Positions 7,606 to 11,774 of a stretch of 24,585 bases of DNA are shown here, piece by piece. The notes under the pieces are model-generated. The model worked only from the letters and a program-made list of their open reading frames with translations, did no database searches and was not told the DNA's origin. The stretch's first letter is position 1; the number at the start of each line of letters is the position of its first letter. This DNA comes from Candidatus Deianiraeaceae bacterium (lineage in GTDB: Bacteria; Pseudomonadota; Alphaproteobacteria; Rickettsiales; Deianiraeaceae), in assembly GCA_044347825.1 (NCBI GenBank), contig JBIKUA010000001.1:1-24585 (forward strand). Reading direction: 5' to 3'. The translations under genes were made by a program, and so were the position numbers.

Positions 7606-8232
7606 TTAAATCATTGTTTTCTTAAAATTCTTATCTACTTGTTTTTGAACATCTTTCGCAAGTGCCATACTTATTATTATATCAGGCTCCGATACAATTC
7701 CATTAGACCCAGTTTTTGCCTTTTTTATCTCGTCTACAAATTCCATTCCTGATACAACTCTACCCCAAACTGTGTATTTTCCATCTAAAAATTCAGAATC
7801 TGCCAAAACTATAAAAAATTGACTATCCGCACTTGCAAGGTCGTTTGCTCTTGCCATGCTTACTATACCTCTTTTATGAGAAATTTTAGAAAATTCTGGT
7901 TCCAGTTTTGTACCACTACCCCCTCTTCCAGTGCCTGTTGGGTCACCCGTTTGAGCTACAAAACCATCTATTACTCTAAAAAATTTATTTCCATCATAAA
8001 AGCCTTGTCTAACAAGTGTTTTAATATGTTCAATATGTTTTGGGGCAATATTTGGAAAAGTTTCAATAACTACGATACCATCTTTTAATTTTAAATAAAT
8101 TAAGTTTTCAATAGGGACATCAATAAGTTTTGCATTCAATTTTTTTAGCCTAACTTCCTGCCAAAGAACAATAAAAGCAAATATAAATACAATGCTTGAA
8201 AAAAGTGTTTTAATAGTTTTAACATTTAGCAT
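7606..8232 (-). CDS. Cyclophilin-type peptidyl-prolyl cis-trans isomerase with N-terminal membrane anchor or signal
   Basis: APKH, GFYDG, FFRVIDGFVAQTGDP, RGIVSMAR, SQFFI and LDGKYTVWGRV; hydrophobic N-terminal segment. Confidence 0.93.
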   Translation of the reverse strand: MLNVKTIKTLFSSIVFIFAFIVLWQEVRLKKLNAKLIDVPIENLIYLKLKDGIVVIETFPNIAPKHIEHIKTLVRQGFYDGNKFFRVIDGFVAQTGDPTGTGRGGSGTKLEPEFSKISHKRGIVSMARANDLASADSQFFIVLADSEFLDGKYTVWGRVVSGMEFVDEIKKAKTGSNGIVSEPDIIISMALAKDVQKQVDKNFKKTMI

Positions 8233-8254
8233 AGACTTACAAAAAACAATAGGG

Positions 8255-8290
8255 CTTTAGTATAATACAAATATACATACTATACTAAAG
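8255..8290. repeat. Perfect 10-bp inverted repeat CTTTAGTATA-N16-TATACTAAAG
   Basis: Read directly; lies in the divergent region between the cyclophilin gene and rplM. Confidence 0.65.
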
Positions 8291-8374
8291 TAAACAGCTT
8301 TTAAAGGAGGTATATCTTATTTGCGATAGATTTTTTTAAATGTCAATAAAATATTGGAAAAATCTTTATAATTT

Positions 8375-8434
8375 AAAAAAAATAAAAAAAAATAAAAAAA
8401 GTATTTGACAAAAATAAAAAATAGGTTAAATAAT
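8375..8434 (+). promoter_or_regulatory. Putative promoter of the rplM operon with phased A-tracts (UP-element-like)
   Basis: A-tracts at 8375-8400 with a 10-nt period, TTGACA at 8405-8410, and an AT-rich -10 candidate (AATAAT 8429-8434). Confidence 0.55.
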
Positions 8435-8466
8435 TGTTTCTATATGAGAGATATATTTTAAATATA

Positions 8467-8940
8467 ATGCATACAAAAAGTACAAAGTTCATCACCCAGA
8501 GTGATGTTGAGCAAAAATGGATACATATTGACGCTAAAGATTGCGTTCTTGGTAGACTTGCCGTTATAATAGCAGATTTACTGAGAGGTAAAAATCAAGT
8601 TACATTCACTCCAAACGCAGACACAGGTCATTTTGTAGTTATTACAAACGCTAGAGAAATTCATATGACAGGGGCTAAAGATGTAAAAGAGAATATGTAT
8701 TGGCACACAGGTCACCCCGGAGGAATTAAGTCTGTTACAAGAAAACAAGCTTTAAGAAACCAAAAATATCAAATGGTTTTAAAAAGAGCAGTTAAAGGTA
8801 TGCTTCCTAGTGGACCTTTAGGATACGCAATGATGAAAAAGTTGTTTATTTACGAAACATCTGACCACCCTCATGTTGCACAAAAACCAGAGGTTTTGGA
8901 TATTCAATCCCTAAGTATAAAGAATAAAAAGAATAGTTAA
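8467..8940 (+). CDS. rplM: 50S ribosomal protein L13
   Basis: KWIHIDA, LGRLA, FTPNADTGHFVVITNA, YWHTGHPGGIK and KGMLP. Start reassigned to ATG 8467 because the track's TTG at 8434 overlaps the promoter. Confidence 0.97.
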   Translation: MHTKSTKFITQSDVEQKWIHIDAKDCVLGRLAVIIADLLRGKNQVTFTPNADTGHFVVITNAREIHMTGAKDVKENMYWHTGHPGGIKSVTRKQALRNQKYQMVLKRAVKGMLPSGPLGYAMMKKLFIYETSDHPHVAQKPEVLDIQSLSIKNKKNS

Positions 8941-8943
8941 GAT

Positions 8944-9468
8944 ATGATATACTCTACAGGTAAAAGAAAAACTTCAATTGCAAAAGTTTGGCTAGATGAA
9001 AAAGCAAAAACTACCGCAGTAAATGATAAAGCTATAGAAACTTACTTTCCAGTTGCTAATTTAAGACAAAAAGTTCTACTTCCGCAATCAGTTCTAGTAA
9101 CAATATTAAAGAAAAGACAGGTTGACGCTATTAATGAAGATGTAATTGTAGGAATTGCAAGTATTAAGGGAAATCAAATACCAGCAAGTTTTTATGAATA
9201 TGTCAACAGCTTTTCAAGTGAAGCGGTTGCAAGCTTAATTGGTGCTATTTCAAACATCAACTTTAAAGTGCAAGCAATTGGCGGAGGCATTAGAGGGCAA
9301 GCTGAAGCCGTTATGTATGGTATTTCAAAATGCCTTGCAGAATTCAAGCCAGAAGTTCAAAAAATTTTAAAAGACTTAGGTTTCTTAACAAGAGATTCAA
9401 GAATTGTTGAGAGGAAAAAACCTGGTCTTAGAAAGGCAAGAAAAAAAGAACAATACTCAAAACGTTAA
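8944..9468 (+). CDS. rpsI: 30S ribosomal protein S9 with an internal insertion
   Basis: TGKRKTSIAKV, GGGIRGQAEA, GFLTRDSRIVERKKPGLRKARKKEQYSKR. Confidence 0.96.
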   Translation: MIYSTGKRKTSIAKVWLDEKAKTTAVNDKAIETYFPVANLRQKVLLPQSVLVTILKKRQVDAINEDVIVGIASIKGNQIPASFYEYVNSFSSEAVASLIGAISNINFKVQAIGGGIRGQAEAVMYGISKCLAEFKPEVQKILKDLGFLTRDSRIVERKKPGLRKARKKEQYSKR

Positions 9469-9483
9469 TATTACTAGAATTTT

Positions 9484-9927
9484 ATGTCCACTGCTAAAAC
9501 AGAAACTCAAAATCAAGGTCTTGCTAGTCTTAAGAAGAGATCTGCAAGTGTTGACTTTCGTGTAGAAGGTGTATCCCTTGAAAACAAAAGAATTTGCATA
9601 GCTCTTACCAAGATATATGGAATTGGAAACACAGTTGCTTTAAAAATTTGTCAAGATTTAAACATAAATCCTGATAAAAGACCTTCCGACATGACAGATG
9701 AAGAAAAAACTGCAATTCGTGATTACATTAAAACAAACCTAAAGGTTGAAGGTGAATTGAAAAAAGTTGTTATTTCTAACATTCAAAGAAAAATCAACAT
9801 TCAATGTTACCAAGGTTTAAGGCATAGATATAAACTTCCTGTTAGAGGTCAAAGAACCAAAACTAATGCAAGAACAAGAAAAGGGAAGTCAAACCCAATT
9901 GCAAATAAAAAGAAAGTTACTAAATAA
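9484..9927 (+). CDS. rpsM: 30S ribosomal protein S13 with an N-terminal extension
   Basis: IALTKIYGIG, VEGEL, CYQGLRHRYKLPVRGQRTKTNARTRKG. Confidence 0.97.
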   Translation: MSTAKTETQNQGLASLKKRSASVDFRVEGVSLENKRICIALTKIYGIGNTVALKICQDLNINPDKRPSDMTDEEKTAIRDYIKTNLKVEGELKKVVISNIQRKINIQCYQGLRHRYKLPVRGQRTKTNARTRKGKSNPIANKKKVTK

Positions 9928-9933
9928 TAAAAT

Positions 9934-10338
9934 ATGGCAAATAAGGCATCATATAATAAAAAAAGCAAAAAAAATATTAAGGTTGTTAGCGTTGCTGAAA
10001 TACATGTGCTTTCAACATTTAATAATATTATCATTTCACTTACAGACCCAAGCGGAAATTTACTTTCTCAGTGTTCTTCAGGTATGGTTGGGGCAAGTGG
10101 TTCCAAAAAAGCGAGTTCATATTTTGCAAGTATGGTAATTAATAGAATTTTAGATTCTGCAAGAGCCTTTAATGTGAAAGCTCTATCTGTTATCTTTAAA
10201 GGTCCTGGAATTAATGGAAGAGATGCAGTTGTAAAAGTGTTGAATGAAAATGCAAACAACTTTGCTATCACCTCTTTAAAGGATTTTACGCCAGTTCCGC
10301 ACAACGGTTGTAGAGCTCGTAAGAGAAGAAGGGCGTAG
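9934..10338 (+). CDS. rpsK: 30S ribosomal protein S11
   Basis: STFNNIIISLTD, KGPG and DFTPVPHNGCR. Confidence 0.96.
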   Translation: MANKASYNKKSKKNIKVVSVAEIHVLSTFNNIIISLTDPSGNLLSQCSSGMVGASGSKKASSYFASMVINRILDSARAFNVKALSVIFKGPGINGRDAVVKVLNENANNFAITSLKDFTPVPHNGCRARKRRRA

Positions 10339-10365
10339 AGCATACTTCGTAGAACATAATATATA

Positions 10366-11364
10366 ATGCTTATGCAAATAAAAGATTCTTACACTTCTTT
10401 AAGTTTTCCTCGCTCATTCGAGCAGACTGTAGTAAAAGATGGTTACAAGTCTATCTTCACTACATATCCAATCCAGCGAGGCTTTGGTATAATAATTGGC
10501 AATGCATTCAGAAGAATTTTACTTTCTTCAATAAGAGGTGTTGCTGTTGTTGCAGTAAAATCAAGTAAATTTGTTAATCTTTACGCAACCGTAGAAGGTG
10601 TAAAAGAAGAATGTTTTTCAATTATTGTCAACATATCCAAACTTGTGGTTAAAATGGATATGACCGAGTCTGCGGTTCTAAAACTTTCTGCAACAAAATC
10701 TGGTAATGTATATGCAGATAGCATTAAAGCACCTGGAGGAGTTGAAATTTTAAATAAAGATTTACATTTATTTACCTTAAATGAAGGTCATTCAATTGAT
10801 ATAGAAATTGAAATTGAAGCTGGCATAGGTCAAAAAAAAGCACAAGGAGTTGATATTATTGGAGGCAGAATAGAAGTTGATAGAATTTACAGTCCAGTTG
10901 AAAAAGTTAGCTTTGATGTCTCAACTATTAATGATACAACGAGTTATGGTAGTAAGAGTACTTACGATAAACTTGATATAACTGTTGAAACAAATGGTTC
11001 CGTTCATCCTAAGGAAGCAGTGGGAATGTCTGCAACTATTGCACGCGAATTTTTTGCTTGCTTTATTGATTTTCCAGAAAAAAGCATTAATATTATTTCC
11101 ACAGGTCAGGCAACGGTTAAAAATATCAATCATTATCTAAACATTCAAATTGATGACTTAGAACTTTCTGTAAGGTCTGCAAACTGCTTAAAGGCGGAAA
11201 AAATACTTTACATTGGTCAGCTTGTTACAAAATCTGAATCTGAGATGTTAAAAACTCCAAACTTTGGTAAAAAATCCTTGGAAGAAATCAAGGCCATTTT
11301 AATAAGTATGGGGCTTTCTCTTGGAATGTCAAAAATAAACTGGGAACCACCAGTAGAAAATTAA
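10366..11364 (+). CDS. rpoA: DNA-directed RNA polymerase subunit alpha
   Basis: [32 protein letters not shown] and the alphaCTD motif [12 protein letters not shown]...[12 protein letters not shown]. Confidence 0.97.
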
Positions 11365-11384
11365 TAGGAATAATTATTATTTAT

Positions 11385-11774
11385 ATGAAACACGGAATTA
11401 ATGGAAGAAAATTTGGTAGAGACACAAAACACAGAAATGCTTTACTGAGAAATCTAGCTACATCCTTAATTTTGCACGGTAGAATAATAACTACTTTACC
11501 AAAAGCGAAAGATTTAAGACCTTATATTGAAAAATTAATCACAAAAGCAAAAAATAAAAGTCTTCACAATATTAGACAAATTGAAAGCGTTCTTTATACA
11601 GAAGAAGCTAGAAAAAAGCTTTTTGAAGTTGTTGCCCCAAAAATGGAAGGTAGAAATGGTGGATATGCTAGAATTTATAAATATGGATTTAGAAAAGGGG
11701 ACGGTGGTGCAAGAGCGATAATTGAGCTTATTGATTGTTATTCTCAAAATCAGGAGGCTGTTGAAACAAATTAA
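11385..11774 (+). CDS. rplQ: 50S ribosomal protein L17
   Basis: MKHG...RKFGR...HRNALLRNLATSL...ITTLPKAK, RNGGYARI and RKGDG. Confidence 0.97.
   Translation: MKHGINGRKFGRDTKHRNALLRNLATSLILHGRIITTLPKAKDLRPYIEKLITKAKNKSLHNIRQIESVLYTEEARKKLFEVVAPKMEGRNGGYARIYKYGFRKGDGGARAIIELIDCYSQNQEAVETN

Follow-up and report, generated by a model that had tools for sequence, protein, structure and literature searches.

Why does the small-subunit ribosomal protein uS9 of an uncultured bacterium carry 48 additional residues in the middle of its core domain, and are they a lasting part of the protein? Bacterial ribosomal proteins are usually treated as near-constant; terminal tails on them are familiar, large folded insertions within a core domain much less so. 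The window, by which we mean the whole stretch of DNA analysed here, comprises 24,585 nucleotides with a GC content of 31.6%. The host belongs to an uncultured lake-water lineage of Rickettsiales (Deianiraeaceae) with a reduced, AT-rich and fast-evolving genome. The nearest named record is the S9 of a ‘Candidatus Deianiraeaceae bacterium’ MAG from Lake Mendota, which is 87% identical to the S9 of the window. It assigns the window to the Rickettsiales within the Alphaproteobacteria, the class in which the initial annotation had proposed to compare S9. The features on which the question turns are:

8434–8940, + strand: rplM, encoding uL13 (Pfam PF00572, E 4e-37), directly 5' of rpsI
8944–9468, + strand: rpsI, encoding uS9 of 174 aa (Pfam PF00380, E 2.4e-35, matched in two stretches)
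8944–9093, + strand: N-terminal part of the uS9 core, residues 1–50, aligned to residues 4–52 of the S9 chain 7jil_n
9094–9240, + strand: the 48-aa insert, about residues 51–99, placed by Pro-to-GGG spacing with edges good to about 3 aa either way
9241–9465, + strand: C-terminal part of the uS9 core, residues 100–174, aligned to residues 54–128 of 7jil_n
9484–9927, + strand: rpsM, encoding uS13 (Pfam PF00416 over residues 27–131 of 147), adjoining the 3' side of rpsI

The genes rplM and rpsI are the usual bacterial operon pair, and in the ORF list only 3 nt lie between the rplM stop codon and the rpsI ATG. The gene order across window positions 8434–11774 is rplM-rpsI-rpsM-rpsK-rpoA-rplQ, so that the uL13-uS9 pair is fused straight onto genes of the alpha operon, with rpsD absent between rpsK and rpoA. 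In g7 and g5, too, the uS13 gene directly follows that for uS9, whereas g2 lacks this arrangement.

The rpsI product is readily recognized as uS9. It scores 122 bits against PF00380 (cut-off 22.5), and phmmer matches it to S9 chains in the PDB with E-values as low as 5e-25. Residues 1–50 form strands 1–3 and two short helices in the AlphaFold2 secondary structure and include the conserved Pro47, and there is no N-terminal extension, unlike in other Rickettsiales. Residues 100–174 supply strand 4, the GGGxxGQ loop, two helices and a basic tail with an SKR end. The C-terminal end reads RKARKKEQYSKR, and the tail is nearly invariant within the insert-bearing clade described below. We found one uS9 match in the host genome G000 (840 kb and 76% complete, which strictly leaves room for a second rpsI copy) and one in G002, a genome of the same genus. 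No S9 match at all was found in G001, another genome of the genus that is 82% complete. Given a single S9 match per genome, and an insert with no second copy, the protein studied here is the cell's only detectable uS9.

The size of the insert follows from its flanks. In the phmmer alignment, residues 2–50 and 100–174 match residues 4–52 and 54–128 of the 128-aa protein 7jil_n, which are contiguous there. Across an alignment of 80 sequences, 57 proteins have 17 residues between Pro47 and the GGG motif and one has 18; of the others, 21 have 65 and one has 66. The window uS9 has 65, against 17 in 57 of the 58 S9 proteins that lack the insert, and the insert is thus 48 aa long. The initial annotation had singled out positions 9085–9255 (+), which encode exactly the 57 residues that it quoted (residues 48–104 of the 174-aa ORF), and had described an in-frame insertion of about 47 aa. 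The reading frame is as it stated, and the length by Pro-to-GGG spacing is slightly above its estimate. The S9 alignment that it proposed as a check separates the proteins cleanly, with spacings of 65–66 in the insert clade and 17–18 elsewhere among the 80 sequences. It was also right that the surrounding S9 motifs and the tail are intact; TGKRK, GGGxxGQ and the SKR-ended C-terminus are all retained.

The insert differs in character from the protein that houses it. Its net charge averages -0.35 across 23 insert-bearing clusters, with a range from -2 to +1, whereas the remaining 125 residues carry +16. About 45% of its residues are hydrophobic. The GC content is 32% in the insert and 34% in the remainder of rpsI.

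How widespread is this segment? A search of 5.8 billion protein clusters returned 23 insert-bearing clusters with identities of 53–100%, and all matches at ≤40% identity are without the insert. The insert is 48 aa long in 22 of the 23 clusters and 49 aa in the other. A scan of a 401-genome sample of the order, with the insert alone as the query, detected it in two genomes only, G000 and G002. The uS9 ORFs read in ten further Deianiraeaceae genera and in six other families of the order are without it. G000 and G002 are 98.9% identical in 16S rRNA, and their 16S identity to other genera of the family is ≤86%. We computed a maximum-likelihood tree from 127 columns of the core, leaving out those of the insert as well as the C-terminally truncated P0023. 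All 22 full-length proteins with the insert group together in a single clade (support 100/100). The stem branch of this clade is long (1.06 changes per site). The tree and the distribution are consistent with one gain in one Deianiraeaceae lineage and, judging from these sequences, the insert clade appears to have since diversified well past the two genomes G000 and G002. The suggestion in the initial annotation of a lineage-specific expansion is thus borne out by a single fully supported clade, by 2 of 401 genomes in the order and by the lack of the insert in sister genera. The segment is neither widespread nor described in the literature that we searched.

Where the sequence came from is less apparent. 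No Pfam family matches the insert, neither the PDB nor Rfam contains a match to it, and the ESM Atlas has no usable match. When 1.84 billion representatives were searched with an insert profile, nothing convincing turned up beyond the insert-bearing S9 clade; besides an S9 representative, the hits were two long repeat proteins, at E of about 1e-4. The two repeat proteins have no informative Pfam domain and show a weak helical-repeat likeness (33% over 46 aa), which we regard as compositional, and we rejected them as homologues. An origin by duplication was likewise set aside, as tblastn and blastn detected no similarity to the rest of uS9 or elsewhere in the genome. No repeats were found flanking the insert.

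Other departures from the canonical protein occur in related uS9 sequences. In other Deianiraeaceae genera (L009, L014, L018, L020, L025 and others) uS9 has N-terminal extensions of about 60–140 aa that are rich in lysine, alanine and serine, with open frames of up to 278 aa. At the Pro-to-GGG site itself, genus g5 (L022, L023) shows 6 inserted residues. P0022 and P0023, two divergent members of the insert clade, both have N-terminal extensions, and they also have additions in the strand 2-3 hairpin (5 residues in P0022, 27 in P0023); the main insert sits at this end of the domain as well.

Coding DNA comprised three insert-bearing genes (those of the window, G002 and L109), and dN/dS is interpretable for the window-G002 pair only, since synonymous sites of the insert are saturated in comparisons with L109. 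This pair has a dS of about 0.9, itself near saturation, and its dN/dS comes to 0.11 within the insert, compared with 0.06 in the core. Seven insert residues are invariant across the 23 clusters (S73, K75, G76, N77, S82, F83 and N88), and all fall within one short stretch:

9160–9207, + strand: S73–N88, the most conserved stretch of the insert (S-I-K-G-N-x-I-P-x-S-F-Y-E-Y-V-N)

Mean column entropy is 1.30 bits in the insert and 0.9–1.0 bits in the globular core. The helix at residues 81–88, at 0.66 bits, is the lowest within the insert and more conserved than the core, whereas the other insert helices are its most variable parts (1.6 bits). On this comparative evidence the insert is kept under purifying selection, and selection at the amino-acid level shows that it is translated.

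Might the segment nevertheless be missing from the mature protein, as an assembly artefact, an intron, an intein or a stretch skipped by translational bypass? The insert-bearing clusters stem from NCBI, JGI, ENA and Logan assemblies, four independent sources, and the recurrence of the same insert in them and in a second genome argues against an artefact. Against bypass or an intron, the frame is open and has no stop codon, and the amino acids are conserved at near-saturated synonymous divergence. No Rfam match was found at E up to 1 across window positions 8200–10000 on both strands, which removes a self-splicing intron or other structured RNA from consideration. An intein can be dismissed too: there is no Pfam intein or Hint match, 48 aa compares with more than about 130 aa for an intein, and neither a Cys/Ser start nor a His-Asn end is present. 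Together, the conserved open frame and the lack of Rfam, repeat and intein features lead us to reject all four forms of this explanation, which we regard as extremely improbable. This agrees with the initial annotation, which had seen no intein features, and the Pfam and Rfam searches gave no sign of splicing of either RNA or protein.

AlphaFold2 modelling, proposed at the outset as a further check, predicts a helical module on a canonical core. The full uS9 model, built with the 80-sequence alignment, has a mean pLDDT of 87 and a pTM of 0.80; pLDDT over the insert is 79–94, with about 79–86 in the loop at residues 61–80. In the model, the helix that follows Pro47 is prolonged to residue 60 (residues 46–60), the loop at 61–80 carries the conserved K-G-N motif, and helices at 81–88 and 92–103 return into strand 4. 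The modelled core superimposes on solved uS9 with Z 15.0 and an rmsd of 1.8 Å over 103 residues, and about 50 residues of the model are unpartnered in every listed solved uS9 chain, be it bacterial, chloroplast or mitochondrial. Residues 44–106 modelled alone give four short helices (pLDDT 81, pTM 0.66). A Foldseek search with this insert-alone model found no match at E ≤ 0.001, and its best fold matches are of PadR, AphA and Reb1 type (helix-turn-helix or winged-helix), with VIA Z of 5.0–5.2, below the level common for small helical models. The insert is thus confidently predicted to be a small module of three to four short helices on a canonical uS9 core.

In which direction might such a module point? 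The fold of uS9 is of the S5-domain-2-like type, with a parallel arrangement of strands 1, 3 and 4. As the insert enters just before strand 4, this topology implies that it exits opposite the TGKRK and GGGxxGQ RNA-binding loops. By the textbook fold, the exit would share its end of the domain with the N-terminus and the strand 2-3 hairpin. The same end is the site of the N-terminal extensions of relatives and of the insertions in P0022 and P0023, and it appears to be permissive and outward-facing. Given this shared exit, the modelled module most likely protrudes on the solvent-facing side of the 30S head.

Our preferred reading is that the insert is probably a permanent, translated expansion segment of the sole uS9 that serves as a structural or protein-contact module on the solvent side. 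It was apparently gained once and has been retained under purifying selection, leaving the uS9 core and the tail that reaches the P site unchanged. The neutral charge, together with the conserved polar loop and short helix, favours a protein-contact or structural surface over an rRNA-binding arm. Possible partners are the enlarged neighbouring head proteins of the genus, or a lineage-specific factor. The extra surface domain on the 30S head that the initial annotation had envisaged is a reasonable proposal, of which the analysis bears out a part.

Comparison with solved ribosomes places the insert among known types of ribosomal protein enlargement. Canonical uS9, as in E. coli and T. thermophilus (6ztj_AI, 1fjg_I), has the same fold (Z 13.6–15.0, rmsd 1.8–1.9 Å over 102–103 residues), and shares with Deianiraeaceae uS9 the TGKRK and GGGxxGQ motifs, the basic Arg-ended tail and the rplM-rpsI pair, but lacks the 48 residues that this lineage has between the conserved Pro and strand 4. 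None of the matched solved uS9 chains has extra residues at the insert site. Mitochondrial uS9m (5mrc_II, 3j9m_AG), chloroplast uS9c (5mmj_i) and the Cutibacterium acnes protein (8cvo_J) likewise have lineage-specific enlargements on an unchanged core; however, their extra residues are N-terminal to the core, whereas in this genus they are internal. The other Deianiraeaceae genera follow the N-terminal, lysine-rich pattern, in place of which this genus has its internal module. Taxonomic markers include conserved signature indels of ribosomal proteins, which usually involve only a few residues. The uS9 insert resembles them in being clade-defining, of fixed length and, it seems, gained once, but it is 48 residues long and predicted to fold by itself. 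The insert is a lineage-specific expansion, specific to its clade, and a variant of known ribosomal protein expansion.

Does the rest of the head show corresponding changes? uS9 is located in the 30S head, and its C-terminal tail, with an invariant Arg, reaches the P site (PMC6344880). It contacts uS7, and uS10 binding needs uS9 (PMC10931766). The 16S head domain of G000 and G002 has no genus-specific indel. The only genus-specific 16S indel, of 3–5 nt, is near G000 position 794 in the central domain, and the remaining small indels are common to g7 and g5, both of which are without the uS9 insert. Genus-specific substitutions affect 9 of 325 conserved columns in the head, 15 of 363 in the 5' domain and 13 of 226 in the central domain, i.e., there is no enrichment in the head.

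Several head proteins, by comparison, are large. uS7 (176 aa; G000:C32:3537-4067, - strand) has about 17 extra residues between two helices relative to g7. The same site is expanded by 7–13 residues in g3, g4, g5, g8, g9 and g10, six genera that all lack the uS9 insert; we therefore rejected a specific co-expansion of uS7 and uS9, and the argument from co-expansion is weak. uS14 (about 122 aa; G000:C110:5868-6245, - strand) is about 20 aa longer than that of E. coli, with the extra residues in its N-terminal helical half, and has the longest uS14 open frame in the family. uS13 (147 aa) has an N-terminal extension of about 25 aa (window 9484–9560) ahead of the Pfam S13 domain; the protein is 99% identical between G000 and G002, and the extension is partly alignable in g7 and absent from most other genera of the family. 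uS10 and uS19 of the genus are ordinary. As judged from its gene sequences, the genus has an unusually protein-rich 30S head, and the evidence gives no causal link among the enlargements.

Could the insert then be compensating for lost or destabilized rRNA? In mitoribosomes, the ‘structural patching’ model holds that protein additions make up for the ablation or expansion of rRNA (Petrov et al. 2019, PMC6367999), and it is the known explanation of many mitoribosomal protein expansions. There, as here, extra protein mass is added to conserved proteins of a fast-evolving ribosome, and a Rickettsiales host with an AT-rich, fast-evolving genome would be a plausible setting for an insert that binds head 16S rRNA; K75, moreover, is an invariant basic residue. 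Unlike in mitoribosomes, there is no matching indel in the 16S head, which also lacks a genus-specific excess of substitutions, and the insert is not basic but electrically neutral in all 23 clusters, unlike typical rRNA-binding extensions. We consider an rRNA-binding role distinctly unlikely. A further alternative is that the insert is one part of a remodelled, protein-enriched 30S head, in which S73–N88 would be a docking site among the enlarged head proteins or for a lineage-specific translation or hibernation factor. The uS7 and uS14 of the genus are the largest in the family, uS13 is N-terminally extended and the 16S head is unchanged, all of which would fit; we think such a concerted arrangement unlikely.

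A less elaborate alternative is that the segment is a passenger, a chance sequence that landed in a permissive, exposed loop and has no function of its own, as in constructive neutral evolution. It would then be kept only since it must fold without disturbing uS9. The failure to trace an origin among 1.84 billion representatives or a paralogue in the genome is in keeping with this, as are the plasticity of Deianiraeaceae uS9 (the lysine-rich N-terminal extensions of 60–140 aa, and the 6-aa insertion of g5 at the same site), the high variability of most insert helices and the long stem branch of the clade. The lower overall conservation of the insert relative to the core also fits a module that is merely tolerated and, like the fact that the uS7 enlargement is not genus-specific, counts against our preferred reading. 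What speaks for a role of its own is the pattern within the insert: seven invariant, mostly polar residues of the loop and short helix persist despite divergence to 53–60% identity, a degree of constraint beyond what is usually required for folding alone. The uniform length (48 aa in all but one cluster) and the insert dN/dS also argue against a passenger. We find this alternative somewhat doubtful, and favour a structural or protein-contact module.

The insert offers a test case for how new structural modules arise on an essential machine, and whether they create contact surfaces. It combines a site of near-fixed length with no detectable ancestor sequence, a stable 48 residues and invariant polar positions. 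As a clean single-origin marker, it may be used to spot the lineage in metagenomes. Should the head indeed prove to be remodelled as a whole, this would be a case of a bacterial ribosome accreting protein without losing rRNA, in an order, the Rickettsiales, that is often discussed alongside mitochondrial origins.

Two further features of the translation apparatus came to light. In a cluster of S10-spc type (G000:C115:2255-2899), a putative rpsQ (uS17) starts 7 nt after a putative rplP (uL16), both genes being assigned from N-terminal sequence alone; this gap is too short for rpmC (uL29) to lie where it normally does. In 16S rRNA, 12 of 13 Deianiraeaceae genes (L189–L201) have GTACACACTGCCCGTCA in place of the usual bacterial GTACACACCGCCCGTCA, at G000 positions of about 1339–1357, and the usual C at this site is kept only in g4 (G005). 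We take this to be a change from C to U within the decoding centre, close to position 1400 in E. coli numbering.
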